DNA of 64,000 nt, from assembly GCA_027023445.1 (NCBI GenBank), contig JALVVK010000127.1, positions 10,615 to 74,614 on the forward strand, given 5' to 3'. The translations under genes were made by a program, and so were the position numbers. The notes below the pieces were generated by a model. It did no database searches, had not been told where the DNA came from, and worked only from the letters and a program-made list of their open reading frames with translations. This document shows, in pieces, positions 9,332-49,594 of this stretch; the stretch's first letter is position 1, and each line of letters begins with the position of its first letter. This DNA comes from Deltaproteobacteria bacterium (GTDB lineage Bacteria > Desulfobacterota > Dissulfuribacteria > Dissulfuribacterales > JALVPX01).

Positions 9332-9430
9332 ACTATTTTTTAACACGGGTTAATATCTTGACTTGGGGACGAAAACATGGTATCGGACCCAGGCTGATGT
9401 TTTGTTAGATCTGTTCTGGATCATCTCGGT

Positions 9431-9507
9431 CGGGACGTGGCGCAGTCTGGAAGCGCACCTGAATGGGGTTCAGGGGGCCGGAGGTTCAAATCCTCTCGTC
9501 CCGACCA
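9431..9507 (+). tRNA. tRNA-Pro (anticodon GGG)
   Basis: Hand-folded cloverleaf. Acceptor CGGGACG/CGTCCCG, D stem GCGC/GCGC, anticodon stem CCTGA/TCAGG with loop AT-GGG-GT, T stem GGAGG/CCTCT, loop TTCAAAT, encoded CCA. Confidence 0.9.
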
Positions 9508-9614
9508 ACTTACTTCCTGTAGTAAATCCGGTGGATGGACGTTTGGTGGTTTCATGTTCTGAGGCTCAGGACATCACGGAATTTTTATTGATTTCGGAAA
9601 AAGGAGGGTCCGCA

Positions 9615-10073
9615 ATGGCCTTGGGCCTTGTAAACGCCTCAAAGGCGATTGAACAGGTTAGGCGGCCCGGTGACGAGGCTTCAACAGCCGTCCAGGTATC
9701 CTGTGGAATGGGCTTTCATCTACTGGTAGAGATGTGGCAGTCCCCGTTCCCAACCCTGGCGGATGCGAATATAATTGAACAGGCCCTTGGGCGTGCCGGA
9801 AAGAATAACAGAGACATGGATGAGGTGTCCGACGCACAGGTCCGGGTACATCAATTCAGCCCGTATGGCGTGTCCGGAACGGCAAGCAGCCCATCCACAC
9901 AGATCCTCATACACACCTGGCCTGAAAACAAGTATGCTGCTGTGGATATCTATGCCCGGGGCAGGGAAAGCGCCTATCAGGTGCTTGAGCAGATGAAACG
10001 GGATCTTAAACCCGGCGCGGTAAATGTTCTTGAGATTCAGCGCGGCAATCTTCTGGATATGGAGGACACTTGA
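9615..10073 (+). CDS. S-adenosylmethionine decarboxylase (SpeH/class 1)-like protein lacking the canonical processing Ser and catalytic Cys
   Basis: ATG 9615 follows AAGGAGGG (9601-9608). Contains FSPYGVSG...ILIHTWPENKYAAVDIY, the SpeH core. The track ORF 9363..10073 runs through the tRNA and is an artefact upstream of 9615. Confidence 0.7.
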   Translation: MALGLVNASKAIEQVRRPGDEASTAVQVSCGMGFHLLVEMWQSPFPTLADANIIEQALGRAGKNNRDMDEVSDAQVRVHQFSPYGVSGTASSPSTQILIHTWPENKYAAVDIYARGRESAYQVLEQMKRDLKPGAVNVLEIQRGNLLDMEDT

Positions 10074-10945
10074 CTCACTACTGGTGGTCCGAGAGAGTTG
10101 GACCAGGATTTTCCCACAGCTACGAGGTGGAACTCCTCTACGAGGAGCGCACACCCTTCCAGCACATGTTCATCTTCAATACCCCTTTCTGGGGTCGTGC
10201 CCTGGTTTTAGACGGGGTCATCCAACTCACAGAAGGCGACGAATACGTTTATCATGAAATGATGGTCCATGTCCCCATTTTGGGCAGGGATCAGCAGGTC
10301 AGGTCTGTTCTCATTATAGGTGGGGCTGATGGCGGCGCTCTGCGAGAGGTACTGACCCACGAATCTGTTGAAAGGGTTGTGCAGGTTGAGTTGGACAAGG
10401 CCGTTTTGAAGGCATGCCGGAAATACATGCCAGAAATATGCCGTGGCTGGGATGATCCCAGGGTCCAGCTTATTATCGGTGATGGTGCAGGGTATATGAA
10501 GGAGGCCGCCAGGCGCGGCGAACAGTTTGACGTGATTCTTCTTGACTCAACAGATCCCATAGGACCGGCAATATCATTGTTTGAGAGGCCTTTCCACGAG
10601 GACATAGCCGCCTGTCTCAGTGATCATGGTGTGGTAGTGCGTCAATCAGGTCTGCCGAGAACCATGCCCAAGGTCATGCCCTTTGTAATGAAAAGATTCG
10701 AGGATGTGCTGCCTCTGGTCCAGGTTTACAGGGCTCCCGTCTCGGTATATGGAGACGAAATGGCCTTTGTGGCAGCCACAAAGGACGGCGTGGCACTGAA
10801 CAACCCCAGAGGCGATCACATCGGGAAATTTTATAACCCGGGTTGCCACCGGGCGGCCTTCGAGCTTCCCACATGGTGGAATAAACTTATTGAATCCTAT
10901 GAAGATGATGGACAGATTCCCCTTGAGACCATCAATATTCTTTGA
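10070..10945 (+). CDS. speE: Spermidine synthase (aminopropyltransferase)
   Basis: LDGVIQLTEGDEYVYHEMM, IIGGADGGALRE and LDSTDPIGPAISLF motifs. The TTG start overlaps the upstream stop by 4 nt. Confidence 0.88.
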   Translation: MTHYWWSERVGPGFSHSYEVELLYEERTPFQHMFIFNTPFWGRALVLDGVIQLTEGDEYVYHEMMVHVPILGRDQQVRSVLIIGGADGGALREVLTHESVERVVQVELDKAVLKACRKYMPEICRGWDDPRVQLIIGDGAGYMKEAARRGEQFDVILLDSTDPIGPAISLFERPFHEDIAACLSDHGVVVRQSGLPRTMPKVMPFVMKRFEDVLPLVQVYRAPVSVYGDEMAFVAATKDGVALNNPRGDHIGKFYNPGCHRAAFELPTWWNKLIESYEDDGQIPLETINIL

Positions 10946-20066: not shown

Positions 20067-21077
20067 CTATACCTTGAAATAATCTCTGTACCACTGGACG
20101 AATCTGGGGATACCCGTCTCCAATGGGGTTGCCGGCTTAAAACCGACATCACGCACCAGGTCATCTATATCCGCGTAAGTGGCGGGCACATCCCCCGGCT
20201 GAAGGGGCAGGAGGTTTTTGACCGCCTTCATCCCAAGGGATTCCTCGATAATTTCTATGAATCGCATAAGCTCAACCGGCTGGTTGTTGCCTATGTTGTA
20301 TATCTTGTAAGGCGCATAGCTGGAGCCGGGATCCGGATCATCGCCGGTCCAGTGTGGATTCGGCTCAGGCATCCTGTCAAGCACGCGAACCACGCCCTCC
20401 ACTATATCGTCAATATATGTGAAGTCTCTCTGCATCTTGCCATAATTAAAGACATCTATGGGCCTTTTCTCCAGTATGGCCCTGGTGAACAGGAAAAGTG
20501 CCATATCGGGCCTGCCCCAGGGGCCGTAAACCGTGAAAAACCTGAGGCCCGTACAGGGAAGGCCGTAAAGATGGCTGTAGCTGTGGGCCATGAGTTCATT
20601 GGCCTTTTTGCTGGCAGCGTAGATGGAAACCGGATGATCCACGTTATGGTGTACGGAAAAGGGCATTTTGGTGTTTGCTCCGTATACCGAGCTTGAAGAG
20701 GCATAAACCAGATGCTTGATATTATTGTGCCTGCATCCCTCCAGGATATTCAGAAAACCTACCAGGTTGGACTGCGCGTAGGAATGCGGATCCTTGAGGG
20801 AATGCCGCACGCCGGCCTGGGCCGCGAGGTTCACCACCGCGTCAAACCCTTCACTGGCGAAAAGGGACTCCATGGCGGCCCTGTCCGCAAGATCAGTTTT
20901 TACAAAACTGAAATTGGAATAGGGCTTAAGGAGTTCGAGCCTGGCATCCTTGATGGATGGGTCATAGTAATCATTTATTATGTCCAGTCCGACCACCGTT
21001 CTGCCTTCTTCAAGGAGGCGTCTGGACAAATGAAAGCCGATAAAACCGGCCGCGCCTGTCACCAGTATCTTCTGCAT
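20067..21077 (-). CDS. NAD-dependent nucleotide-sugar epimerase (UDP-glucuronate 4-epimerase-like)
   Basis: [14 protein letters not shown] and the YAASK catalytic motif. I prefer the ATG at 21077 (MQKILVTG); the track ORF starts at 21125. Confidence 0.85.
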
Positions 21078-21185
21078 ATCTTTCCCGGGCATATATTCCT
21101 TTTTCCTTTCTCCGGGATGCCGCACGTCTCATCCCGGAAAGAATTCAGTTTCTCAAGTATTCGTAACAAGGGATATTGTCACCCC

Positions 21186-21340
21186 TGGACATGAAAACAG
21201 CCAACCACCCGTTTCCTCTGGTCACTCTATAATCTTTAAGTACGTTGTTATCTTAATTCAATATTCAATTCAATATTCAACACTTACCATTCAACATTGC
21301 CATCCCCTGTACCGTGCACCTTGTACCATGGACCGTTAAT
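21186..21340. repeat. Family B-related repeat mosaic with a 12-bp tandem duplication
   Basis: GGACATGAAAAC, then AATTCAATATTC x2 (about 21254-21277), then CACTTACCATTCAACATTG and TGTACCGTGCACCTTGTACCATGGACCGTTAATC. These resemble modules of 42085-42165. Confidence 0.5.
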
Positions 21341-23182
21341 CTATTCCACGGTCACGCTTTTTGCCAGATTTCTGGGCTGGTCAACATCGCATCCCCTTGC
21401 AACCGCTATCTCGTAAGCCAGAAGCTGGAGCGGGATCACGTACAGGAACGGGTTAATTTCAGGCGCCTGTGGACGGGGGCAGTAAATTACATGCCGGGTT
21501 ATCTTGGCAAGCCCTTTATCTCCCTTTTCACCAACTCCGACCACGATTCCTCTTCTTGAGCGCACCTCTTCAATATTACTTAGAATTTTTTGGTAAACAT
21601 GATCCCTGGGAGCAAGGGCCACAACAGGCATGTCCCGGTCTATCAGTGCTATGGGACCGTGTTTCATCTCACCTGCCGCATAGCCTTCCGCGTGTATATA
21701 GGAAATTTCCTTCAGCTTTAACGCTCCCTCAAGGGCAATGGGGAACTGAAGATCCCTGCCAAGGTAAAGGAAATCGGTGTTACGGTAAAAAATATCGGCA
21801 AGGGAGGCAGCCGCCTCGTGCCAGCCGGCGATATCATCCTGGATGAGAGCCGGAACCTGGATCAGGGCGGAGACAAGATCCTTCATCTCCTGTTTCTGCA
21901 ACCTGCCCCTGACCCGTCCGAGATAAAGGGCCAGAAGATACAGCGCGGTGAGCTGACTTGTAAAGGCCTTGGTGGATGCCACCCCGATTTCAGGCCCTGC
22001 GTGGGTATAAATGGTGCCGTCCGATTCCCTGGTTATGGTGCTTCCCAGGACATTGCATATGGAAACCACCGGAGATTCCAGTTCTTTTGCCATTCTGAGC
22101 CCGGCAAGGGTATCGGCGGTCTCCCCTGACTGGGAAACAGGCACGGTGAGTACCGTGGGATCCAGGAGAAGGTGCCTGTACCGGAATTCAGAGGCCAGAT
22201 CCACCTCCACCGGGATGCCAGCCCATTTTTCAATCCAGTATTTGGCCACCAGACCGGCGTGCCAGGATGTGCCGCATGCCAGAAGAACAACCCTGGTCAG
22301 GTTCCGTATCCTGTCTTCGGAAAGGCGGATCTCAGGAAGATCGATCTCGCCTGTCTCAGGCACCACCCTGCCCCTGAAGGTGTTGAGGATGGCCTGTGGC
22401 TGCTCGTAGATTTCCTTGAGCATGAAATGCTTGTGCCCGGCCTTCTCGGCCATGGACGCGTCCCAGGATATGGACCGGGGCGCCCTTGCTACAGGCTCAA
22501 AGGTTTCCAGGTTTCTTATTTCTATTCCCTGTCCGGAGAGAATGGCTATCTCCCCGTCTTCCAGAAAGAGCAGATCCTTTGTGTAGGGCAACAGCGCCGG
22601 GATATCGGATGCCAGGAAGGATTCACCTTCCAGCAGCCCGAGAACCAGCGGGCTCTGTTTCCTCGCGGCCACGATCTGATCCCCGTTTTTCTTCCAGAGA
22701 ACCGCCATGGCATAGGCGCCTTCGACCTCTTCAAGGGCCTCTCGCACTGCCTGCGCGAGATCTGTACGCAGGTACTTTTCCACAAGATGCGCGAGCACCT
22801 CGGTATCCGTCTCTGACTTGAACCGGTGCCCTTCGGCCTTCAGTTTCTCCCGGAGTGAATAATAATTTTCTATGATGCCATTGTGCACGACCACCAGGTC
22901 CCCGGTGCAGTCCGTATGCGGATGGGCGTTTGTCTCTGAGGGCTCTCCATGCGTGGCCCACCTGGTATGTCCGAGGCCGATGTGACTCCTGGTGTCCATT
23001 AAACCGTTCAGAAGCCGGTTCAGTTCGCCCAGCTTGCCCTGGCTCCTTTTCAGCACAAGTTTCCCATCCCTGATCCAGGCTATCCCAGCAGAATCATATC
23101 CCCTGTATTCCAGCCTCTTGAGCCCTTCCATCAGGATGGGTATTACCCTCCTGTGCCCAACGTAACCAACAATACCGCACAT
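21341..23182 (-). CDS. glmS: Glutamine--fructose-6-phosphate aminotransferase
   Basis: MCGIVGY N-terminal nucleophile, two SIS domains, and C-terminal ...LAKSVTVE. 613 aa. Confidence 0.95.
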   Translation of the reverse strand: MCGIVGYVGHRRVIPILMEGLKRLEYRGYDSAGIAWIRDGKLVLKRSQGKLGELNRLLNGLMDTRSHIGLGHTRWATHGEPSETNAHPHTDCTGDLVVVHNGIIENYYSLREKLKAEGHRFKSETDTEVLAHLVEKYLRTDLAQAVREALEEVEGAYAMAVLWKKNGDQIVAARKQSPLVLGLLEGESFLASDIPALLPYTKDLLFLEDGEIAILSGQGIEIRNLETFEPVARAPRSISWDASMAEKAGHKHFMLKEIYEQPQAILNTFRGRVVPETGEIDLPEIRLSEDRIRNLTRVVLLACGTSWHAGLVAKYWIEKWAGIPVEVDLASEFRYRHLLLDPTVLTVPVSQSGETADTLAGLRMAKELESPVVSICNVLGSTITRESDGTIYTHAGPEIGVASTKAFTSQLTALYLLALYLGRVRGRLQKQEMKDLVSALIQVPALIQDDIAGWHEAAASLADIFYRNTDFLYLGRDLQFPIALEGALKLKEISYIHAEGYAAGEMKHGPIALIDRDMPVVALAPRDHVYQKILSNIEEVRSRRGIVVGVGEKGDKGLAKITRHVIYCPRPQAPEINPFLYVIPLQLLAYEIAVARGCDVDQPRNLAKSVTVE

Positions 23183-23201
23183 TAGGACCTCCTTGCGTCT
23201 C

Positions 23202-24593
23202 TTACCTGGCCCCTTCCCGGAAAAGGATGGTTTTTACCGTCTTGAGAATGATATAAAGATCGAGCACCACGGACATGTGCTTGATATAATAGAGATCATA
23301 TGTCAATTTTTCCATGGCGTCCTCTACAGAGGCACCATAAGGATAATTTATCTGTGCCCAACCCGTAATGCCTGGCTGCACGGTATGTCTCTGGTCATAA
23401 TAGGCTATCAGCTCCCTTAACTGCGATACAAACACCGGTCGTTCAGGCCTCGGACCCACAAAGGACATGTCCCCCTTAAGAACATTCCACATCTGCGGGA
23501 TCTCATCTATCCTGAGTTTTCTTATAATCCTGCCCACCCTGGTCACACGATCATCGTCTTTTTTTGCCCATCTGGCGCCTTTATCCTCCGCGTCGCTTCT
23601 CATGGAACGGAATTTTACAAGGGTAAAGACCCTGCCATCCTTACCCACGCGTTCCTGTCTGAACAATACCGGCCCGGGGGAATCAATCTTTATAAGGATG
23701 GCGGTAAGGCATATAACCGGGAAAGAAATCAGCAGGCCCACGATGCTTGCCAGTATGGCAACCACACGTTTCCCTGTCATCATGAACCAGCTTTTCTGAA
23801 ATCCTTCATGAAAAATTAGCCAGCTCGGATTGATTTTGTCCACAATGATCTTTCCGGTGATTTCCTCGTAGAATGTCTCGCCTTCCAGGACCGCTATGCC
23901 CTGCATCTTGCACCTGAGGAGCTCCTGGACCGGAAGCCTGCCCCGTCTTTCATCCATGGCCACCACGATGCCCTCGGCGCCTGTCTCCTTTAGGCATGAC
24001 ATGTAGTCCTCAACATTATAAAAACACGGTATTCCCTTAATGGATTCCTGCCTGTCCTTTCCGCCATTAAGCAGGATGATGCCAGAAATCTTGAAACCGC
24101 AGTCCCCGTGTCCCTGCACCTCATTTATAATTTTTTCAGGAAAATCACCCTGTCCCACCAGCAGAAGCGGGGTTGTCCCCACCCCTTTCTTCAGTATCAC
24201 CACATATGCGAAACGCCAGACACTGCTGATGGCAACGAACACCAATATGCTTCTGGCGTAGATCCATTTCCCGGGCATAAGGGAGGGGAGGACAAAAAAG
24301 AGAAATCCAAGGGCAATGGACGCCCAGCCCAGGGCCTGAAACAGGGTTATGGCCATCTCAAGGTAGCTGTACCCGGCCCTGAAGGTATAAAGCCCATGGT
24401 AATAAAGGCTTAACAGACACACCAGGGAGATAAGCACGAGTTTCGCCCATAGAACGGGCGTATGGAGCAGTACGAAATTCCAGCCATGGCGGGAAAGATA
24501 TACCAGCACCAGGGAAAACAGGATAAAAAGGCCCTCCCCGGAAAAAAAGAGAAGCTTTCTTACGGGATATTTTTTCCCAAAAAGAGTAAACAT
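23202..24593 (-). CDS. Undecaprenyl-phosphate sugar phosphotransferase (EPS priming enzyme, EpsB/WbaP-like)
   Basis: Five N-terminal TM helices, a central CoA-binding-like region, and the C-terminal bacterial sugar transferase domain (PGPVLFRQERVGKDGRVF...GPRPERP). Confidence 0.88.
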   Translation of the reverse strand: MFTLFGKKYPVRKLLFFSGEGLFILFSLVLVYLSRHGWNFVLLHTPVLWAKLVLISLVCLLSLYYHGLYTFRAGYSYLEMAITLFQALGWASIALGFLFFVLPSLMPGKWIYARSILVFVAISSVWRFAYVVILKKGVGTTPLLLVGQGDFPEKIINEVQGHGDCGFKISGIILLNGGKDRQESIKGIPCFYNVEDYMSCLKETGAEGIVVAMDERRGRLPVQELLRCKMQGIAVLEGETFYEEITGKIIVDKINPSWLIFHEGFQKSWFMMTGKRVVAILASIVGLLISFPVICLTAILIKIDSPGPVLFRQERVGKDGRVFTLVKFRSMRSDAEDKGARWAKKDDDRVTRVGRIIRKLRIDEIPQMWNVLKGDMSFVGPRPERPVFVSQLRELIAYYDQRHTVQPGITGWAQINYPYGASVEDAMEKLTYDLYYIKHMSVVLDLYIILKTVKTILFREGAR

Positions 24594-24699
24594 CTTCGAC
24601 CAGATGACCTTATCCTGGCATTAAGCCGTTTAGCCTTGGAACACAGACATACACGACCTGTTCCCATGCCAGAGAGATAAAAATGAAATCCCTCGTCGG

Positions 24700-25575
24700 T
24701 TATTCAGGGTAACGGTAACATCTTTTGTAATAGGAATATTTGCGGGGAGTGACCTCAAAACCGTTGAAAACAACCCCAAGTATCCTCTCCCTTCCAATCT
24801 TCTCCACGGCCTGTTCTACTACATCCTGGAAGGATTTGCCATAACGAACCACCAGAATAACCGTATCCACGTGTTTCGCAAGGGTCAGGGTTTCAGCTGC
24901 CAGGTTTACAGGAGGGGAATCCAGGATTATGAAACGGTCCGAATATCTCTCCCTGGCCTCGGCCAGCATTGAAGACATCCTGGATGATGTCAAAAGCTCC
25001 GCCGGGTTGCGCGGGGTAGGCCCCGCCGGCAGGACCGTCAACTTTGTCAGCGGGGTTTTTACCAGAAACCTTGCAAGCGAATTCCCGGACTGGAGATAAT
25101 CCGAAAGCCCTTCCTGAGCCTGGATGCCAAGCATTTCATGGGCATGTGGATTTCTCGTATCCGCGTCTATGAGAAGGGCATAGGGATCTATTCCCTGGGC
25201 AATACTGACCGCGAGATTGCAGGCGACAAAGGTCTTACCCTCCTGTTCAAGGGCTGAGGTAATCAGGACAACGCGTTTTTCCTGTCCATCCCTGGGATAA
25301 AGCAGGTGGGAACGCAGCACCTTGAAGTTTTCAGCCGCAGGGGAACCCGGATGGTGATAAACTACAAGCCTGGGGCTGACACTGTTCTGTGTCTGGCCGG
25401 CAGGCAGGGATACGCAGCCCCCCCTTCTCTGGTGATCAGTGCCTTGTGGAGCAGGACTGGCTGCGCCCTCCCTGGCCTCACTCCTTTCATCCTCAGGGGA
25501 ACTGTTTATAACACCTGTTTTCTCAGTGACAGAGGCCTTGCCCGCCTTATCCAGCGCGTCAGCTATCTTTCCCAT
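24700..25575 (-). CDS. EPS-locus BY-kinase-like P-loop ATPase (tyrosine autokinase type)
   Basis: Walker A SALEQEGKT, A' LLIDADTRNP, B FIILDSPP, and a Tyr-rich tail KYSYYKRCYRY. I prefer the ATG at 25575. Confidence 0.8.
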   Translation of the reverse strand: MGKIADALDKAGKASVTEKTGVINSSPEDERSEAREGAASPAPQGTDHQRRGGCVSLPAGQTQNSVSPRLVVYHHPGSPAAENFKVLRSHLLYPRDGQEKRVVLITSALEQEGKTFVACNLAVSIAQGIDPYALLIDADTRNPHAHEMLGIQAQEGLSDYLQSGNSLARFLVKTPLTKLTVLPAGPTPRNPAELLTSSRMSSMLAEARERYSDRFIILDSPPVNLAAETLTLAKHVDTVILVVRYGKSFQDVVEQAVEKIGRERILGVVFNGFEVTPRKYSYYKRCYRYPE

Positions 25576-25591
25576 ATGAAACCCGTTGTAA

Positions 25592-26536
25592 TCACTCAGC
25601 CGTCCTTTCCAGCCACACAATCAAAAAACCTGCCACAGCGAGGACGAAAATTATAACCACATAAATCCAGGAACATGACCTCCCCTCGGATCTTCCTGAT
25701 TTTTCATTATTATTTCCGCCTGTGTCCTTTTGGTCTTTTATGTTCAGTTCGCCCGCGCATTCCTCAATTAATTTATCGTCAATAGTTCTGCAGTTCTTGA
25801 CAAAACCTGTAAGCATACAGCGGTCACACAATATATTTATCAGCCTGGGGACCCCCTTCGTATATTCGTATATCTTTCCAAGGGCCTTGTCTGAAAAGAT
25901 GTCAAGATCCATGGCACCGGCCCTGACCAACCGGTTTTTTACATACTGAAAGGTCTCTTCCCTGCCCATTGATGGAAGATGATAATAAAGTGTAATACGC
26001 TGTTTAAGCGGGCGGAGATCAGGCGACTGAAGTTTGGCGTCCAGCTCTGGCTGGCCTACAAGAATGATGTTTATAAGCTTACTGTTAGGCGTCTCAAGGT
26101 TGGAAAGCAACCTGATTTCTTCCAGCAGATCCTCGGAAAGGCAATGGGCCTCATCCACAATAAGCACCACGTTCTCATCCCGTTCATAGGCCTTTTCCAG
26201 AAAATGGGAAAACCTGACCAGAAATTTGGCCTTGTTTTCCACAGCCCCAAGCTGATAGGCCTCTGCCAGAAGGTAAAAAAAATCTTCCCTGCTGAGGGTC
26301 GGATTTGAGACAAACGCAACCCGCACCTCCTGTGGTATTTTGGTCAGGAGTGTGTGAATCAGCGTGGTTTTACCTGTACCGACCTCCCCTGTTATTACCA
26401 CAAAGCCCTTCCGGTGCGTTACGCCGTAGGTGAGATGCGCCAATCCCTCCCTATGGGCCTCGCTAAGGTAGAGGAAACCGGGATCCGGGGAAATAGTGAA
26501 AGGGTGTTTATTAAGATTGTAATAGGCCAGATACAT
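25592..26536 (-). CDS. ExeA-like AAA ATPase of PEP-CTERM-type EPS loci
   Basis: ITGEVGTGKTT Walker A, LIVDEAHCL Walker B and a C-terminal TM helix. I prefer the ATG at 26536. Confidence 0.75.
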   Translation of the reverse strand: MYLAYYNLNKHPFTISPDPGFLYLSEAHREGLAHLTYGVTHRKGFVVITGEVGTGKTTLIHTLLTKIPQEVRVAFVSNPTLSREDFFYLLAEAYQLGAVENKAKFLVRFSHFLEKAYERDENVVLIVDEAHCLSEDLLEEIRLLSNLETPNSKLINIILVGQPELDAKLQSPDLRPLKQRITLYYHLPSMGREETFQYVKNRLVRAGAMDLDIFSDKALGKIYEYTKGVPRLINILCDRCMLTGFVKNCRTIDDKLIEECAGELNIKDQKDTGGNNNEKSGRSEGRSCSWIYVVIIFVLAVAGFLIVWLERTAE

Positions 26537-26550
26537 GCAGGGGAACCCGT

Positions 26551-28173
26551 TTAAAATAAACCGGCCAGCGAACCGGCCCCTTTTTCCCAAAGTATGAAAA
26601 GGAGACCACCGACCCCTGCGTAACAGGAAAATGCCAAAAGCCCGAGGCCTATGTTCTTAAAAAATTTCTTCCTTTTTTCATCCGGAGTCAGGACCAACGG
26701 AAGGCAGGCAACCATGGGAAGCTTCAGGGCCTTCGTGACCTCGTCAGGATCGTAAAAAGCCTTTGAGATAAATTCCAGCGCAAGAGCTGATCCGACCCCG
26801 GTGCCAAGGGCCAGGATCAGGGTCATGAGCAGGACCTTTTTGACATTCGGTTTTATCGGGGTCTCCGGCATACGTGCCGGATCAATCACCCTGAACTGCT
26901 CCCCCTCCTGCCTGCGTTCAAGGGCAGCGGCCTGTTCCGCCTCTATCTTCCGGGTAAGGAGATTATTATAGGTCTGCCTCAGGTTATTATAATCCCTGGT
27001 AATATCTATAAGCTCCTGTTCCCTCTTTGGAGTATCCTCAATCCGCTTTTTATAGACCTCTATCTGCTTTTTGATTTTTTTATTCTCTTCCTTCATTGCC
27101 TTGATTTCCATATCAAGGCTTTTGATCTGGTACCTGAGTCCAACGACAACCGCGTTCTGATACGGAGGTTCATCAGAAGAAGCCTCGTGCGATACCCCTG
27201 GAGCCTGGGTGCCATTCACTTGTCCGGCATGCCTATGTGCCTGTTCTTTTTCCAGCTTGGCGATAAGCTGTTTTGTGGCTATTACGTCCGGGTACTGTTC
27301 AGTGTACCTGGTCCTGAGATCCCTGAGTCGCTCTTTCAGGGACTCAAGCGTGACAGGAGCCCGGACACCGTCAGCATGCCCAGCGGCCTTGGCCAGACGG
27401 GTTGATGCCGCAAGACGCAGGTTGTTCTCTTCATCAGCCAGCTCGCGCTGTAACAGCAATTTTCTGTCCTCGGCTCTCCGGATGTCCTCCTGAAGTCCCT
27501 CCATCTGCTGGCCCAGGCGTTCCATCATGGCGATATTCGTGTCTCTCTGCTCAGGAAGCTCTCCCATGTGCTTCATCTTGTATTTTTTAAGGGCTTCCTC
27601 CCTTTCCTTAAGGCTTTTATAGACCTTCTCCAGTTGCTGCGCCAGAAACTCAGCCGTACTCTTGGCCTGGCTCTCTCTGAGCTTCAGATTCTCTTCGATA
27701 AACATGTTTGCAAGGGAGTTGCAGACCTTGGTGATGAGCACAGGATCCGTTCCTTCATAGGACAGGATAAAGGCGTTGTTTCTGTCGGTCCTCGGGCTCT
27801 CAATGCTGATCTTTTTCCGCATTAGCTCGACCACGGTCTCCATGGGATATTTTTCTCTCATGTCCGGGTAAAGGTTAAACTGCTGGATAAGCCTTTCCAG
27901 GGTGGTCCGGCTTATGACCTCCTGCCATATGCCCCGGATACGCTCCCGAACATTCCCTGTCACCGTGGAACGTACGTAATTTTCCGGCACCTTCTGGGGA
28001 ACCACCACAATGGTGGTACTCGTCTTGTATACCCTGGTGGCAACCAGGCAGTAGACAATCCCTGCGATAAGCAGGGGAACGGTGCCAAATATGATGACCC
28101 ATTTTCTTCTAAGGATCAGGGATAGATATCTATCCAGATCAAGCGGCTGTTGTTTTTCGGTCTCAGCGGCCAT
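26551..28173 (-). CDS. Polysaccharide chain-length determinant (Wzz/GumC-like, PCP family)
   Basis: N-terminal TM after LDLDRYLSLILRRKW, a long coiled-coil periplasmic region, and a C-terminal TM pair. Confidence 0.85.
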   Translation of the reverse strand: MAAETEKQQPLDLDRYLSLILRRKWVIIFGTVPLLIAGIVYCLVATRVYKTSTTIVVVPQKVPENYVRSTVTGNVRERIRGIWQEVISRTTLERLIQQFNLYPDMREKYPMETVVELMRKKISIESPRTDRNNAFILSYEGTDPVLITKVCNSLANMFIEENLKLRESQAKSTAEFLAQQLEKVYKSLKEREEALKKYKMKHMGELPEQRDTNIAMMERLGQQMEGLQEDIRRAEDRKLLLQRELADEENNLRLAASTRLAKAAGHADGVRAPVTLESLKERLRDLRTRYTEQYPDVIATKQLIAKLEKEQAHRHAGQVNGTQAPGVSHEASSDEPPYQNAVVVGLRYQIKSLDMEIKAMKEENKKIKKQIEVYKKRIEDTPKREQELIDITRDYNNLRQTYNNLLTRKIEAEQAAALERRQEGEQFRVIDPARMPETPIKPNVKKVLLMTLILALGTGVGSALALEFISKAFYDPDEVTKALKLPMVACLPLVLTPDEKRKKFFKNIGLGLLAFSCYAGVGGLLFILWEKGAGSLAGLF

Positions 28174-28177
28174 TATT

Positions 28178-29437
28178 TCATCTCCATTCGCGAGTAGCGG
28201 AAAGCCTGAAAAGTACCAGGGTATCCCTGAACTGGCTGTCCGCGTCCGATGAATACCTTTCCCTCTGCATCAGATTAAGGGAACAGGAAAGCCATGGCAG
28301 TATCCGATAGGAAACGCCCGCGGTTCCGCTCCAGAAATCATCCCGGGATGAGGTTATATCCCTGGATTCCTCATGATCATAGGAAATCATGGCATTCGTT
28401 GTTACGCTGGCGGAAAGTTTATATGTCCCGGAGAGGGACACGGACTTATAATCCGTGAATCCCCTTCTCTCCGCGTCGGTATATTCTCCCCTGGCTCCAC
28501 CGGTTCCGGAAAGGCTCAGGGAACCCCGCTCAAAGGTCCTGCTCAGGACAAGATTGTAAGAAATTCCCGTGTTATCCGGGGACGTCTGCTGCTGCCTTAC
28601 ATAATAACCCAGATGGGCACTGAGACTCATCACCTGGCTCAATGCCCGCTCTATGCCAAGGCTGCCGTTATGAACCCGGTAGTCATTATCCCCAGGCCCC
28701 TTATCTCTGAAAAGTTCCAGGCTGTAATCAATACTTAATGTAGTCCGGGGAGACCATCTGTACCGGTATCCGGCACCCATGGTATTTGTCTCCAGCGGAC
28801 TTGAGGTCTCAAAATCCGTTCTTCTCCACGCATAACTGAGACTGAGGCCATGCCTGTGACTGAACCAATAAGCCAGATTGATGCCAGGACCGTATTCATT
28901 GCTGTCCTCCACATCCGGGGCCTTGTTTTTGAGAAGGCTGTCTGAATATGTCATGGAAAGGCGGTCTTCCTCGCCAAAGACATATGAGAAACCGGTCTCA
29001 GCCGTATTTCTGTAATACCTGTTCCGGGTCTTCCTTACCGCTGTAATATGTGGATCCTGCTCTATGGGCTCTTCGCTCAGATAAAAGGTATCATTAAGCA
29101 GGAAGCTGAAACTACTGGAGAGCTGCTGATCAAGGCCCAGGTCAAAGGAATGCCCGATATAATTTTTCTCGGAGTAGCGCTTGAAATTGACCGAGTTAAG
29201 GGTGTAACGACCGTGCAGGGTTCTCGTTGCCCCTTCCTCCTCCAAACCCAAATTGAGGCCAACATCGGTTTCGAAATCAGACACCTCGTTGTCAGGCCTC
29301 AGATAAATATTGGAATCATAGCGCTCAGAGGCATCCAGCCCTGTGGTAACCCTTAATTCTGCCATGGTAAGGCCCTGAAACGAAAGCCAGATCGCAACAG
29401 CCAAAAAAACAGAAACCCAAAAGCCGGTCTTTGCCAT
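28178..29437 (-). CDS. EPS-locus outer-membrane beta-barrel protein
   Basis: Signal peptide, alternating beta-strand pattern throughout, and a C-terminal aromatic end (...LSATREWR). Its position between the export and chain-length genes matches the PEP-CTERM locus OMP. Confidence 0.65.
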   Translation of the reverse strand: MAKTGFWVSVFLAVAIWLSFQGLTMAELRVTTGLDASERYDSNIYLRPDNEVSDFETDVGLNLGLEEEGATRTLHGRYTLNSVNFKRYSEKNYIGHSFDLGLDQQLSSSFSFLLNDTFYLSEEPIEQDPHITAVRKTRNRYYRNTAETGFSYVFGEEDRLSMTYSDSLLKNKAPDVEDSNEYGPGINLAYWFSHRHGLSLSYAWRRTDFETSSPLETNTMGAGYRYRWSPRTTLSIDYSLELFRDKGPGDNDYRVHNGSLGIERALSQVMSLSAHLGYYVRQQQTSPDNTGISYNLVLSRTFERGSLSLSGTGGARGEYTDAERRGFTDYKSVSLSGTYKLSASVTTNAMISYDHEESRDITSSRDDFWSGTAGVSYRILPWLSCSLNLMQRERYSSDADSQFRDTLVLFRLSATREWR

Positions 29438-29454
29438 GACCCCCCCCGTTTGGC

Positions 29455-30099
29455 CTATGGAACTATGATTGTGTCCCCAGGCGCGAGCTCGATATTTGTA
29501 TCAAGGTCCTCTCCCCTTGACACCTTGCTGTAATTAAACCTGATTTTTCTTTGCCTGCCGTTTTCCATCCGTACTATGACGATGTTTTTTTCATCCGCCC
29601 ACTGGGCCAACCCGCCCGCAAGGGACAGGGCCTGAAGCACCGTAAGCCCATGGTGCAGTGGAAACTGGCCGGGGTTGTTTACCTTACCCATTATGTAAAT
29701 ATTTTTGCTGTGTATCTCCCGAACGGTCACTGAAACCGTGGGGTTGGACACATATCTGGAAAGGGCTTTTTCCAGCCGGGCTTTGAGCTGAAGGGGAGTC
29801 AGGCCGGCCGCGGTCACATCGTCCAGCAGGGGCAAGGTAATTTTCCCATCAGGCCTCACGGGAATAGTCCGTGAAAGATTGGGCTCTCGCCAGACCTGTA
29901 TTTCAAGCACATCTGACGGACCGATAATATAATGATTTACAGCCACCTGATTTTTCCGCACTTCTTTTTCGGGCGTCTGGGCGCATGTCAAAGTACACGC
30001 AACGCACAAAAGAAAGAGGGCTGAAATGGATATTGCGGCCGTCCAAAAACAGGACCCTGAATACCACGAAAAACAAAATTCACGAAGGTATGATCGCAT
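29455..30099 (-). CDS. Polysaccharide export protein (Wza/EpsA-like periplasmic component)
   Basis: Lipoprotein-like signal, YIIGPSDVLEIQVW (the PES motif region of Poly_export), and a SLBB-like C-terminus. Confidence 0.85.
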   Translation of the reverse strand: MRSYLREFCFSWYSGSCFWTAAISISALFLLCVACTLTCAQTPEKEVRKNQVAVNHYIIGPSDVLEIQVWREPNLSRTIPVRPDGKITLPLLDDVTAAGLTPLQLKARLEKALSRYVSNPTVSVTVREIHSKNIYIMGKVNNPGQFPLHHGLTVLQALSLAGGLAQWADEKNIVIVRMENGRQRKIRFNYSKVSRGEDLDTNIELAPGDTIIVP

Positions 30100-37349: not shown

Positions 37350-38777
37350 ATGGATTATGAAGTCGTCATAGGGCTTGAGGTTCACGTACAGCTTAAGACT
37401 GAAAGCAAAATTTTTTGTGGATGCTCCACCACTTTTGGCGCGCCGCCCAACACCCATACATGCCCTGTTTGTCTTGGGATGCCAGGGGTCCTTCCCGTGT
37501 TGAACAGGAACGTGGTGGAATATGCCATGAGGATGGCTCTGGCGACAAATTGCCAGATCGCTCCATACAGCCAGTTTGCCCGGAAAAACTATTTCTATCC
37601 GGATTTGCCCAAAGGGTACCAGATTTCCCAGTATGAATTACCCCTGGCCGAACACGGATGGGTTGAAATCGACTTGAACGGACAGACCAAACGTATCGGA
37701 ATTACCCGAATACATCTTGAAGAGGATGCGGGAAAACTTATACATGATGAAAACAGGCCGGTCAGCTATGTCGACCTTAACCGCACAGGGGTGCCGCTGA
37801 TTGAGATTGTCAGCGAGCCTGACATGAGGGATCCCGAAGAGGCGGGAGCATACCTTAAAAAATTGCGCCAGCTTGTTCGTTACCTGGGAATAAGTGATGG
37901 CAACATGGAGGAAGGGAGCCTCCGGTGCGACGCAAATATATCCCTCAGGCCCAGGGGCCAGGATGAACTTGGCGTCAAATCCGAACTCAAGAACATGAAT
38001 TCCTTTCGCCATGTGCAGAAGGCCCTGGAATATGAAATAAGACGTCAGAGCGCCCTTTTAATGGATAACCGGAAGGTTGTCCAGGAAACCCGGCTGTGGG
38101 ACCATGGCAGAGGCGTCACCGTAGCCATGAGAGGCAAGGAGGAGGCGCATGATTACCGGTATTTCCCCGATCCCGATCTGGTGCCGGTCAGGATTGAAGA
38201 CCAATGGCTGGAATCCGTTAAAAAAAGCCTGCCTGAGCTCCCTGATATAAAAAGAGAAAGATTTGTCAGGGAATACGGCCTGCCCGCCTACGACGCGGGA
38301 GTTCTCACATCTTCCCGTTCCATGGCCGATTATTTTGAATCATGCGTAAAGGCGTTTCCCAGGCCTAAGACAGTCAGCAACTGGATAATGGTGGAACTGA
38401 TCCGGCTTCTGAAGCAGGACAACAGGGAAATCAGCGCATGCCCGGTCAGCGCGGACCATCTGGCAGGACTCCTGAAGTTGCTGGAAAAAGGAACCATCAG
38501 TGGCAAAATGGCCAAGGATGTACTGGAGCAGGCATACAGCACAGGCACTTCTCCTGAAGAAATAGTGAGGGAACAAGGCCTTGCCCAGGTAAGCGATGAG
38601 GCCACGCTCAGGGCTGTTATCCAGGAGGTCATAGACGACTGTCCACAGGAAGTGGAAAAATACCGGGCAGGCAAACACAAAATTCTGGGGTTCCTGGTTG
38701 GCCAGGTAATGAAACGGACAAAGGGCAAGGCCAATCCCCAGAAGGTCAACGCCCTTTTAAGGGAGTTGCTGGGATAG
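37350..38777 (+). CDS. gatB: Asp/Glu-tRNA(Asn/Gln) amidotransferase subunit B
   Basis: [15 protein letters not shown]... and a C-terminal YqeY-like tail. 475 aa. Confidence 0.95.
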
Positions 38778-38779
38778 AA

Positions 38780-39883
38780 ATGGATGCCAATCAATATCAG
38801 GACCCTGTTGAGCTTTTATCCGCAAAGGGTGGTTCCTCTGTTGTGCCATTGCGATGGCAGGGCGGAAACCTTTATCTTCTGGACCAGAGGCTGCTGCCTT
38901 ACGAAGAGGTCTGGCTGCAATATTCAAGGCCTGAGCAGGTAGCCTGCGCGATAACCGATCTGGTAGTCAGGGGCGCGCCGGCAATCGGCATAACAGCGGC
39001 CCTTGGCATGGTCCTGGCCGCAATGTGTCTCAAGGAAGAAAAAGAAGACCTGCTTCGGGATAAATGGCTCGGGCATGCGGAGCGGATGATCAGTGCCCGG
39101 CCTACCGCGGTCAACCTGGCCTGGGCGGTGAAGCGGATGAAGAGGGCCTTTGACGTCTTCATGGAGGAATCTTCCACCTCCGGACTTTCCGGACTTGTAA
39201 AACGTCTGGAGCGGGAGGCAATGTCTATCTGGCTTGAGGATGTCAGGGCCAATCTTACCATGGGTGAGCATGGCCAGGCACTATTTCCCGAGGAGGGCGG
39301 TGTGCTTACACACTGCAATGCGGGTGCGCTGGCTACCGGTGGCTATGGCACGGCCTTGGGGGTCATAAGGGCCGCAATTGCCAATGGTAAAAAGATACAT
39401 GTGGTAGCTGACGAAACCAGGCCATGGCTTCAGGGGGCAAGGCTCACCGCGTACGAACTGGCAAAGGATCACATTCCGGTTACCCTGACAGTGGACAGCG
39501 CGTCAGGGCTTCTTATGCGAAAAGGGATGATCCGTGCGGTAATAGTTGGAGCGGACAGGATCGCGGCCAACGGTGATGTGGCCAATAAGATCGGGACCTA
39601 TAATGTCGCCGAACTTGCAAGGGCCAACGGTATTCCGTTCTTTGTAGCGGCCCCTACCTCTACCCTGGACCTGGACACCCCTGGAGGAGATGAGATCCCC
39701 ATAGAAGAACGTCCTCCTGAAGAAATAACTACCATAGCGGGAAAGATATTTACCGTCCCTGAGGCAAGAGTGTATAATCCCGTATTCGACATTACTCCCA
39801 ACAACCTGATCTCGGCCATAATCACCGAGAAAGGTGTGCTTACACCTCCCTATGGACCAGCCATCTCAGCCTGCATGTCTTAA
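38780..39883 (+). CDS. mtnA: S-methyl-5-thioribose-1-phosphate isomerase (eIF-2B alpha/beta/delta family)
   Basis: LYLLDQRLLPYEE...VVRGAPAIGITAA...TRPWLQGARLTAYEL...GADRIAANGDVANKIGTY. Confidence 0.88.
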   Translation: MDANQYQDPVELLSAKGGSSVVPLRWQGGNLYLLDQRLLPYEEVWLQYSRPEQVACAITDLVVRGAPAIGITAALGMVLAAMCLKEEKEDLLRDKWLGHAERMISARPTAVNLAWAVKRMKRAFDVFMEESSTSGLSGLVKRLEREAMSIWLEDVRANLTMGEHGQALFPEEGGVLTHCNAGALATGGYGTALGVIRAAIANGKKIHVVADETRPWLQGARLTAYELAKDHIPVTLTVDSASGLLMRKGMIRAVIVGADRIAANGDVANKIGTYNVAELARANGIPFFVAAPTSTLDLDTPGGDEIPIEERPPEEITTIAGKIFTVPEARVYNPVFDITPNNLISAIITEKGVLTPPYGPAISACMS

Positions 39884-47693: not shown

Positions 47694-48785
47694 CTATTTT
47701 CCGGACGGCCTTCCCGATAGCTTAACACGTACACGACGGAGGGTTTCGTTCCTGTAGACAGATAGTGTGATCGTATCTCCAGGATACATGCGTCTTAACT
47801 GTGACAGGACCTCAATATCCGAACGTACGTTTTTGCCATTCACCGCAACGATGATATCCCCGCCCGCATAATAAATCTGATTTCCAAGACATACCTTGCG
47901 GCTGGCCGCACGTAGCCCTGCCTTTGCTCCCGGACCATTTCTGGCAAGGTTCGTTACCATGGCCCCATGATCCACAGGAAGTCCCAAGATTCTTGCCAGT
48001 GAAGGAGTTACTGGTTGGAGGGTCACGCCCATCCACGGCCGCTCCACGCTGCCCCTGGATATAATCTGGGAGGCAATCCAGATTACCGTGTCTGATGAAA
48101 TGGCGAAACCGATACCAGGGACAGGGCCTTCGGGAAGGAACAGAGCCGTGTTCATGCCTATGGCCCTGCCGGATAAATCAACAAGGGGGCCTCCCCGCCA
48201 TGATTTCTGAACCGGGATATTGGTCTGGATAACCATGTCCACCGCATAGCCTGAAGGGGTAAGAACAGAGGGACGTATAGCGCTGATGATCCCCTGAGCT
48301 ACTACAAATCCCCTGGTAAAAGGGCTTGCCAGTGATAACACCTTGCGGCCCGGTTTCAGTGTGTCAAAGGTACCCATGGCCATTGGATCAAGTGATTGCA
48401 ATTCATCTTTCGGGGCCTGGATCTGCAATATGGCAATACCAGTCTCCGGATCCGTTCCCAAAAACTTGGCAGGCCAGCGATTGCCATTGAATAAAATCAC
48501 TTCCACCGCATGCGGATCAGAAATTATCTCCATCGTCGTAGCTACATGCCCGTCTCCGTCGATAATAAATCCAGATCCCATTCCCGCGGGCTGCACCGGG
48601 CGGGAGAGATCCTGCGGGGTGATAGTGGTACTCACAACACCTACAACCCCCCTGCATATCCTGGAACAAAGGGCGGTGACGGTGGACTTGCTCCAGGCGC
48701 AGGAAAAGCCGGAAGCAACCAGGATAATGCCTGCGGCCGCCATGAACAGACAGAAAATCCGTCCTGCAGGTTCCTGAAATTTCAT
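47694..48785 (-). CDS. HtrA/DegS-like trypsin-fold plus PDZ protein with all three catalytic-triad positions substituted
   Basis: GSGFIID...GIAILQI...GGPLVDLSGRAIGMNTA...GIGFAI plus a PDZ region aligns with DegS/DegP. The aligned His, Asp and Ser positions read Glu, Gly and Arg. Confidence 0.75.
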   Translation of the reverse strand: MKFQEPAGRIFCLFMAAAGIILVASGFSCAWSKSTVTALCSRICRGVVGVVSTTITPQDLSRPVQPAGMGSGFIIDGDGHVATTMEIISDPHAVEVILFNGNRWPAKFLGTDPETGIAILQIQAPKDELQSLDPMAMGTFDTLKPGRKVLSLASPFTRGFVVAQGIISAIRPSVLTPSGYAVDMVIQTNIPVQKSWRGGPLVDLSGRAIGMNTALFLPEGPVPGIGFAISSDTVIWIASQIISRGSVERPWMGVTLQPVTPSLARILGLPVDHGAMVTNLARNGPGAKAGLRAASRKVCLGNQIYYAGGDIIVAVNGKNVRSDIEVLSQLRRMYPGDTITLSVYRNETLRRVRVKLSGRPSGK

Positions 48786-49594
48786 TGCACACCTCCCCCT
48801 GCCAGCAGGATTGCCACGATTCCTGCCAGAACAAGACGATAGGATACAAAGGGATAAAAGGTATGCCTTACCAGGAATTTCATTAAAAAGGCAATGGCAA
48901 GATAGCCTGAGATGCAGGCGGCCAGAAAACCCCAGAGATAACTGGCATCCAGGCCTGAAAAACCGTGCCTGAAGAGCTTTAACCCCTCATAAAAACCGGC
49001 TCCTGCTATAATGGGCGCTGAAAGCAGGAAGGAAAACTTGGCTGCGGCCTGCCTTTCCATGCCAAGGAACAGGGCCGCGGTCATGGTAATCCCGCTCCTG
49101 GACACTCCTGGTACAACGGCGAGGGCCTGGGCGCAGCCTACAACGAGCGCGTCCCTGACCCCGATGCGCTCAAAGGTTCTGTTCTGCCTTGACATGCGTT
49201 CCGCGGCAAAAAGAAGCAGAGCAACGCCTGACAGGGTGCTTACCACCACCCAGGGCGATCTCAGCACTGTGGAGACAATGTCTTCCAGGAAAAAACCAAA
49301 AATGGCGCCGGGTATTGTGCCAAGTATCAACAGAAACAAAAGCCTTGCGTCCCTTTGATTAACAAGGGAACCCGCCATTGCCTTCCAATCCTCACGGAAA
49401 TAATACAGTACGGCCAAGAGGGTCCCCATGTGTAGCGTCACATCAAATACGATTGAAACATCCTTAAGGCCCAGGAAATATTCCGCCAGGATCAGATGCC
49501 CTGAACTGGACACAGGCAAAAATTCCGTAGCCCCCTGAAGGATTCCAAGCATGACTGCGTCAACAGGATTCATAATCATGATTGATATTGCCAC
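48782..49594 (-). CDS. uppP: Undecaprenyl-diphosphate phosphatase
   Basis: GILQGATEFLPVSSSGHL and PGVSRSGITM motifs. The exact start is uncertain. Confidence 0.9.
   Translation of the reverse strand: MAISIMIMNPVDAVMLGILQGATEFLPVSSSGHLILAEYFLGLKDVSIVFDVTLHMGTLLAVLYYFREDWKAMAGSLVNQRDARLLFLLILGTIPGAIFGFFLEDIVSTVLRSPWVVVSTLSGVALLLFAAERMSRQNRTFERIGVRDALVVGCAQALAVVPGVSRSGITMTAALFLGMERQAAAKFSFLLSAPIIAGAGFYEGLKLFRHGFSGLDASYLWGFLAACISGYLAIAFLMKFLVRHTFYPFVSYRLVLAGIVAILLAGGGVQ

Follow-up and report, generated by a model that had tools for sequence, protein, structure and literature searches.

Dead relatives of S-adenosylmethionine (AdoMet) decarboxylase (AdoMetDC) have precedents in the trypanosome prozyme, which controls polyamine synthesis, and in the dead AdoMetDC-like domain that is built into animal spermine synthase. 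The latter, an N-terminal domain, was reportedly recognized by Wu et al. in 2008 as AdoMetDC-like and required for activity, and we know of no sequence similarity between it and SpeH. It has also been associated with dimerisation (PMC11203672). For AdoMetDC itself, S63, H68, and C83 (Thermotoga maritima numbering) are the residues for self-cleavage and decarboxylation, and the Pro of the HTWPE motif marks bona fide AdoMetDC as opposed to arginine decarboxylase (ADC); degraded SpeD domains that do not self-cleave have been described in Victivallis vadensis (WP_116885763) and Desulfobacter latus (WP_178365596) (PMC10407285). Here, we describe a free-standing SpeH-like protein without the pyruvoyl-forming Ser and the catalytic Cys, encoded together with the spermidine synthase gene speE on 64,000 nucleotides of a Deltaproteobacteria bacterium (contig JALVVK010000127.1, positions 10,615 to 74,614; this whole stretch is called the window). 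The gene, which we refer to as dead speH, probably encodes a previously undescribed non-catalytic helper of polyamine synthesis that is always made with spermidine synthase in one lineage.

A SpeH fold without the cleavage serine and the catalytic cysteine

The gene starts with the ATG at 9615, 7 nt past an AGGAGG, and stops with the TGA at 10071-10073. The features that carry the argument are the following.

9615..10073, + strand: dead speH paralogue, class 1b AdoMetDC fold, 152 aa (PF02675)
9894..9902, + strand: S94-T95-Q96 replacing the canonical E-S-H cleavage site (Thr95 codon ACA at 9897-9899)
9912..9926, + strand: H100-T-W-P-E104, the HTWPE motif (T. maritima H68 to E72; in 67/67 clade sequences)
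9957..9959, + strand: Arg115 (CGG) replacing the catalytic Cys83 (alignment to 1TLU)
10058..10073, + strand: stop-start junction ATGGAGGACACTTGA, with GGAGGA at 10061-10066 as the speE Shine-Dalgarno sequence
10070..10945, + strand: speE, spermidine synthase/polyamine aminopropyltransferase, 291 aa (PF01564, 4e-48; PF17284, 5e-14)

The domain PF02675 (AdoMet_dc) covers the full length of the protein with an E value of 7e-22, which bears out the class 1 AdoMetDC core that an earlier note, made from the letters of this DNA, had recognized. Against TIGR03330, the NCBIfam equivalog for active SpeH, the protein scores 70.9 bits and so falls below the cut-off of 75.65. The earlier note had further placed a Thr at the position of the pyruvoyl-forming Ser, a Ser at that of the preceding Glu, and an Arg at that of the catalytic Cys. 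All of this was found again in three independent alignments, namely HMMER to T. maritima AdoMetDC (1TLU), MAFFT with 27 relatives, and hhalign of the family profile to the canonical profile (probability 99.9%). The cleavage region is ungapped in each of them, with S94-T95-Q96 on E62-S63-H64 and R115 on C83, and the window protein and T. maritima SpeH are 33% identical. None of the three puts a Ser at the cleavage position, which is occupied by Thr95 throughout, and no alternative conserved Ser was found in the cleavage loop across the family, in which positions 91, 92, and 94 are variable. H100 and the AdoMetDC-type Pro of HTWPE are present.

The AlphaFold2 model has a confident core at residues 30-145 (predicted local distance difference test, pLDDT, ~85-97), preceded by 29 residues that are predicted to be disordered; the whole clade has this N-terminal extension, which is missing from T. 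maritima SpeH. The best PDB match in Foldseek is the uncleaved S63A mutant of the T. maritima enzyme (1TMI, E 1e-10), with 1VR7 and 1TLU likewise at E 1e-10. Further matches of the model are to human spermine synthase, in its N-terminal domain (3C6K, E 1.5e-6), and to the AdoMetDC/prozyme of T. brucei (5TVM).

A clade of Thermodesulfobacteriota under purifying selection

A protein search retrieved 39 close relatives annotated as AdoMetDC, including those of Thermodesulfatator indicus, T. atlanticus, and Dissulfurirhabdus thermomarina. Scanning one genome per species added 61 loci, all from Thermodesulfobacteriota: Desulfobacterales-like and Dissulfuribacterales metagenome-assembled genomes (MAGs) and the genera Thermodesulfatator, Thermosulfurimonas, Thermodesulfobacterium, and Caldimicrobium. 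The family is compact, because at E<=1e-30 an exhaustive profile search of 1.8 billion representatives returned no more than six clusters at 50% identity. Its 67 non-redundant members are monophyletic (bootstrap 128/200) in a neighbor-joining tree that also holds 35 canonical sequences.

Throughout this clade the residues for catalysis are replaced. At the position of Ser63 stand Ala (45 sequences), Ile (5), Leu (4), Val (4), Ser (4), Thr (3), and Met (2), at that of Cys83 Arg (17), Glu (13), Gly (8), Lys (6), Ser, Asn, and Asp (5 each) and others, with Cys in 0/67, and at that of Glu62 there is no consensus. That the same substitutions define a clade of 67 sequences is not chance. Identical in 67/67 are H7, E11, F49, P51, G53, V54, S55, I67, H68, T69, W70, P71, E72, Y75, A77, D79, R112, and G113 (T. 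maritima numbering), and W41, P44, F45, A49, A51, Q80, I112, and A120 (window numbering) are new, clade-specific invariant residues. Core dN/dS values of dead speH are 0.02-0.08, the same as those of speE and true even at loci that have no speE (0.035-0.07 between the window gene and its relatives); the gene is therefore functional and not decaying.

Thr95 is common only to the window protein and its two nearest relatives, and relatives at 71-74% identity carry Ala. Since Ala, Ile, Leu, Val, and Met prevail in the clade where the Ser would stand, the Thr of the window protein is incidental. With Thr in 3/67, Ser in 4/67, and Ala, Ile, Leu, Val, or Met in 60/67, the function selected across the clade cannot be one that needs a pyruvoyl-type cofactor derived from Ser or Thr. 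Every Ser or Thr codon at the cleavage site is a single step from GCN. A Ser is back at this position, with Cys still missing, in L036 (T. autotrophicus), L060-L062 (Caldimicrobium), and P0164; the site sequences among them are GDSHIF, GKSHIY, and GCSHVY, again one-step changes from GCN. Outside the clade, the MAG locus L077 (10013-10372) encodes a SpeH whose site is the canonical ESH but whose catalytic Cys is replaced by Ser ('DIYSSKD'). We considered and rejected a kinship of the family with degraded SpeD fusion domains: the fusion protein P0163 owed its high score to having two domains, and the C-terminal one lies outside the clade.

Coupling to an intact spermidine synthase

The TTG start of speE (10070-10072) and the TGA stop of dead speH (10071-10073) share a 4-nt overlap, as the earlier note had described, and the two genes are open reading frames (ORFs) in different frames that are not covalently fused. 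The note had also called SpeE intact, which agrees with the NF002010 score of 269.6 (cut-off 260), matches to PF01564 and PF17284, a best PDB match to B. subtilis SpeE (1IY9, 3e-53), and the presence of Q31, YHE, GGxDGG, E107/D109, D138, and DSTDP. Within the clade, conservation of the catalytic motifs reaches 100%, and the window SpeE is an intact, conventional aminopropyltransferase.

Directly downstream of dead speH, speE is found in 60 of the 67 loci. All 65 loci examined carry the junction ACT-TGA-CT unchanged in their DNA, with the Thr codon always ACT, and the last codons of dead speH in the clade loci contain GGAGGA or GGGGGA 5' of it. Canonical speH-speE pairs of other phyla in the same scan lie 6-15 nt or more apart and have no overlap. 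The invariant junction indicates a translational coupling of dead speH and speE that would be old and obligatory. An apparent C-terminal 'MEDT' motif was discarded as a protein motif; it is largely a nucleotide-level feature, because the codons at the junction also supply speE with its Shine-Dalgarno sequence and TTG start. At the speE-less loci L014, L021, L023, L024, L034, and L051, the stop of dead speH keeps GAAGACACT-TGA-CT, and this retained junction sequence suggests that speE was lost precisely from a pair that had been coupled in the ancestor.

Search for a canonical AdoMetDC

The intactness of SpeE implies that its aminopropyl donor, decarboxylated AdoMet (dcAdoMet), must come from an active AdoMetDC in these cells. 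Aminopropyltransferases of Thermodesulfobacterium thermophilum make spermidine and thermospermine in E. coli (PMC11107197). Neither the window nor the 92 fetched loci (1.36 Mb in total) gave a second AdoMetDC-fold ORF in searches with tblastn and hidden Markov models (HMMs), and no canonical AdoMetDC gene lies within ±10 kb of dead speH at any of the 67 loci. When eight canonical SpeH sequences were used for a profile search, the best 120 of 7995 matches included none from the target genera. P0165, which of the canonical sequences lies nearest the clade profile, originates from an unrelated MAG with 37% GC and as a query gave, among the 120 matches listed, only cyanobacterial relatives and no canonical SpeH of Thermodesulfobacteria. 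The 1.36 Mb of clade sequence holds no second AdoMetDC-fold gene, and we give a very small chance to the idea that clade members, among them cultured thermophiles with an intact SpeE, lack canonical AdoMetDC altogether; the donor would then be made or delivered through an undescribed non-pyruvoyl route involving the Ser-less SpeH, possibly with a DUF62 protein (see below).

Leader, upstream tRNA gene, and wider neighborhood

Upstream of the conserved core, the window has the following features.

9431..9507, + strand: tRNA-Pro(GGG), 107 nt 5' of dead speH (ARAGORN; Rfam RF00005, 59.3 bits)
9508..9614, + strand: leader with the Shine-Dalgarno sequence AGGAGG at 9602-9607 (read from the sequence)
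9615..9701, + strand: N-terminal extension of the SpeH-like protein, residues 1-29 (pLDDT <50; alignments)

The longest mechanical ORF (9363-10073, 236 aa, TTG start) was rejected as the true gene, since it spans the tRNA-Pro gene; programs that call the longest ORF would over-extend dead SpeH through this tRNA. In the leader, Rfam at E<=1 matched nothing but the tRNA, without any riboswitch or leader RNA family, and a scan for promoters and terminators around dead speH gave nothing convincing, the leader having no terminator-like site. A conserved hairpin of the form CC(A/G)GGC-loop-GCCTGG abuts the Shine-Dalgarno sequence GGGGAGGTG in Thermodesulfobacteria and lies immediately 5' of where dead speH begins in L002, L036, L037, L046, L049, and L052-L069; the window leader (9508-9614) does not have it.

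A tRNA-Pro(GGG) gene precedes dead speH on the same strand in 25 of the 33 clade loci checked by ARAGORN and in 54 loci by blastn (e.g., at 9823-9899 in L002, 9750-9826 in L003, and 9747-9822 in L056). Its spacing to dead speH is 27-175 nt across the clade, and the other neighbors all differ. It is absent upstream in the subclade L025-L035/L039 and was never found upstream of the canonical speH loci L074-L092. Co-transcription with processing could account for the linkage, as could an old anchor of synteny.

A second recurrent neighbor encodes a DUF62/SAM (AdoMet) hydroxide adenosyltransferase (PF01887 and PF20257). It is present at 26 clade loci, after speE in 20 of them (e.g., 11311-12105 in L003; 10577-11365 is the corresponding gene in L012), and at the six speE-less loci this SAM hydrolase gene directly follows dead speH. 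There is none in the 64-kb window and none near the Thermodesulfobacteria loci. At 37350-39883 the window carries gatB followed by an IF-2B family gene (MtnA-like, of the methylthioribose-1-phosphate isomerase type); the same pair, with 59% identity to that of the window, adjoins dead speH and the DUF62 gene in L012. This IF-2B/MtnA-like gene was the only hit in a Pfam pass over the remaining window ORFs for polyamine genes. Farther downstream, a Trypsin_2/PDZ protease gene and then bacA occur both in the window (47694-49594) and in T. indicus (L002, 18463-20254), a vestige of broader synteny that distant clade members share. The minus-strand cluster at 20067-30099 is of the exopolysaccharide type (epimerase, GlmS-like, sugar transferase, Wzz/GNVR, porin-like, and Poly_export genes) and unrelated to dead speH.

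Possible functions of dead SpeH

Tentatively, and at a little under an even chance, we favor the view that dead SpeH is a conserved pseudoenzyme: an uncleaved, ligand-binding, non-catalytic subunit or regulator of the aminopropyltransferase step with SpeE as its partner. A class 1b SpeH paralogue without the pyruvoyl Ser and the proton-donor Cys would, judging from its sequence, remain an uncleaved, proenzyme-like chain and would not decarboxylate AdoMet. Because the rest of the AdoMet pocket is retained, it most likely binds an adenosyl-sulfonium or adenosyl-thioether ligand, i.e., AdoMet, dcAdoMet, or methylthioadenosine (MTA). Termination-reinitiation at the observed ACTTGA/TTG junction would have it translated in a fixed ratio with SpeE, on which it would act as an equivalent, split off into a second polypeptide, of the AdoMetDC-like N-terminal domain in animal spermine synthase; the dcAdoMet would presumably come from an enzyme whose gene lies elsewhere in the genome. 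The non-catalytic partner proposed in the earlier note is thus supported in general, although the partner to which the gene neighborhood points is SpeE, and in part the DUF62 SAM hydrolase, and not a canonical AdoMetDC as in the trypanosomatid comparison made there. Several observations weigh against the role that we favor. At the six speE-less loci, dead speH is kept under purifying selection with a DUF62 gene directly after it, so that the protein would not be solely a SpeE scaffold unless speE lies elsewhere in those genomes; bacterial SpeE carries an oligomerisation domain of its own (PF17284); a 273-aa aminopropyltransferase of Thermodesulfobacterium, maybe not a dead-speH neighbor, is active alone in E. 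coli (PMC11107197); and the retention of F49, S55, H68, and E72 with the loss of S63 and C83 would also fit a trans-complementing partner of an active SpeH. In the latter case, the main rival, which we consider possible but rather doubtful, dead SpeH would form a prozyme-like heterodimer with a distant canonical SpeH, give F49, S55, H68, and E72 in trans to the pyruvoyl/Cys site, and thereby activate or regulate dcAdoMet production. In the T. maritima and human structures, the active site consists of the pyruvoyl group and Cys of one protomer or half and the Phe, Ser, His, and Glu of the other, so a subunit in which no more than S63 and C83 is missing could make an active partner's site complete. 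The C-terminal half of eukaryotic class 2 AdoMetDC acts in this way, and so does the degraded domain in bacterial SpeD-SpeDC fusions (PMC10407285). What dead SpeH has lost (E62, S63, C83) and what it has kept (F49, S55, H68, E72) form the complement expected of such a subunit, the intact SpeE implies an active AdoMetDC in these cells, the window model matches 5TVM, SpeD-SpeDC fusions are documented in Victivallis and Desulfobacter (PMC10407285), and the degraded C-terminal SpeD domain of the fusion P0163 has 'PRAH...HTWPE' without the Cys. However, that domain is not a member of the dead-SpeH clade, the canonical paralogue in these genomes is hypothetical, H7 and E11 are still 100% conserved although they would be on the dead side of the heterodimer, and within ±10 kb no AdoMetDC-fold gene is found in 67 genomes, yet speE is coupled in 60.

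The recurrence of the DUF62 gene, after speE in 20 loci and in its place at the six others, raises the possibility of a housekeeping role, unlikely in our estimate, in which dead SpeH would bind AdoMet or dcAdoMet (e.g., the wrong sulfonium diastereomer) or MTA and, together with DUF62, clear away or buffer adenosyl compounds that are unusable or inhibitory in the surroundings of SpeE, especially in thermophiles. Selectivity for (R,S)-SAM is on record for one DUF62 enzyme (PMC10491745). Thermophiles are numerous in the clade (Thermodesulfatator, Thermodesulfobacterium, Caldimicrobium), genes of the MTA-salvage type lie nearby in some loci (PNP_UDP_1 in L003, IF-2B/MtnA-like in L012), and the pocket residues are retained; against this, neither the window nor the surroundings of the Thermodesulfobacteria loci hold a DUF62 gene, and the proposal is built on gene neighborhood alone. 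That the protein is still a decarboxylase, either through processing of Thr95 to an alpha-ketobutyryl group or as a neofunctionalized arginine or ornithine decarboxylase, is highly improbable. The processing residues H68 (H100) and S55 (S87) are present, Ser stands at the site in L036 and L060-62, and NCBI and JGI annotate members as adenosylmethionine decarboxylase. Both variants, which the earlier note had left as options, nevertheless fail on the clade: Ser or Thr occurs in 7/67 sequences (Thr in 3) against Ala, Ile, Leu, Val, or Met in 60/67, the consensus Ala, also carried by the relatives at 71-74% identity, is not processable, Cys is found in none of the sequences, each Ser or Thr codon is a single step from GCN, and the TIGR03330 score is below its cut-off. 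A pyruvoyl-dependent ADC or ornithine decarboxylase (ODC) would retain the processing Ser, with loss of the HTWPE Pro diagnostic of ADC and Gln/Thr/Phe/Tyr as the substitutions diagnostic of ODC; here the Ser is missing and the Pro is kept. Finally, the loss of the catalytic residues might be taken as the mark of a decaying speH pseudogene, to which we assign next to no probability: the frame is intact in 67 genomes, dN/dS is 0.02-0.08, and 18 canonical positions are still invariant with about ten newly invariant ones, a conservation that refutes decay.

Comparison with known systems

A close described protein is canonical class 1b SpeH/SpeD (T. maritima TM0655; 1TLU, 1TMI, 1VR7), with which the window protein shares the fold, HTWPE, F49, S55, D79, and R112-G113, and in many phyla canonical speH likewise lies directly upstream of speE. 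The window protein differs from it in having no Glu-Ser site and no Cys83, in scoring below TIGR03330, and in its 29-residue extension and the clade-specific W41, P44, F45, A49, and A51; the dead speH junction with speE differs from that of canonical pairs in its 4-nt stop-start overlap with a TTG start. Public annotations as 'adenosylmethionine decarboxylase (proenzyme)' are probably wrong as to activity, and metabolic reconstructions of Thermodesulfobacteriota may wrongly credit dead SpeH with dcAdoMet synthesis. The presence or absence of a canonical AdoMetDC separates a pseudoenzyme of the ordinary sort from a more radical account, and if the clade genomes lack it, the source of the aminopropyl donor becomes a biochemical question.

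The earlier note knew of no bacterial example of a non-catalytic AdoMetDC partner. This is too broad as it stands, given that degraded SpeD domains fused to active SpeD have been described, and it holds for the arrangement reported here, as we found no description of a free-standing, Ser-less SpeH coupled to speE in the literature searched. The degraded C-terminal domain of SpeD-SpeDC fusions is, like dead SpeH, a bacterial AdoMetDC fold without critical active-site residues. It is, however, joined to an active SpeD and belongs to the ODC (SpeDC) branch, whereas dead SpeH is free-standing, forms its own clade, is coupled to speE, and has a conserved pocket. Fusions of AdoMetDC and aminopropyltransferase (Candidatus Pelagibacter, PMC11107197; Alkalihalobacillus, L085) also join an AdoMetDC fold to an aminopropyltransferase, but their AdoMetDC domain is active with Ser and Cys, unlike dead SpeH. 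The Alkalihalobacillus sp. example (L085, 9989-11329) is a 446-aa protein with the site 'TSH' and the Cys present.

Among eukaryotes, the trypanosomatid prozyme (5TVM) is likewise a dead AdoMetDC paralogue under selection and a pseudoenzyme of polyamine synthesis (PMC5201418). It is a two-domain class 2 protein that forms a heterodimer with its active paralogue, whereas the window protein is a single class 1b domain whose genetic partner is SpeE. The N-terminal domain of animal spermine synthase (3C6K) shares with dead SpeH a non-catalytic AdoMetDC fold tied to an aminopropyltransferase; that module is fused to its enzyme, and dead SpeH is a separate polypeptide with homology to SpeH and a retained ligand pocket. 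The strictly conserved dead speH-speE pair provides a simple system of two proteins in which to ask how a dead AdoMetDC module serves an aminopropyltransferase, and dead SpeH may show a stage in the origin of the spermine synthase architecture or of the two-domain class 2 AdoMetDC.

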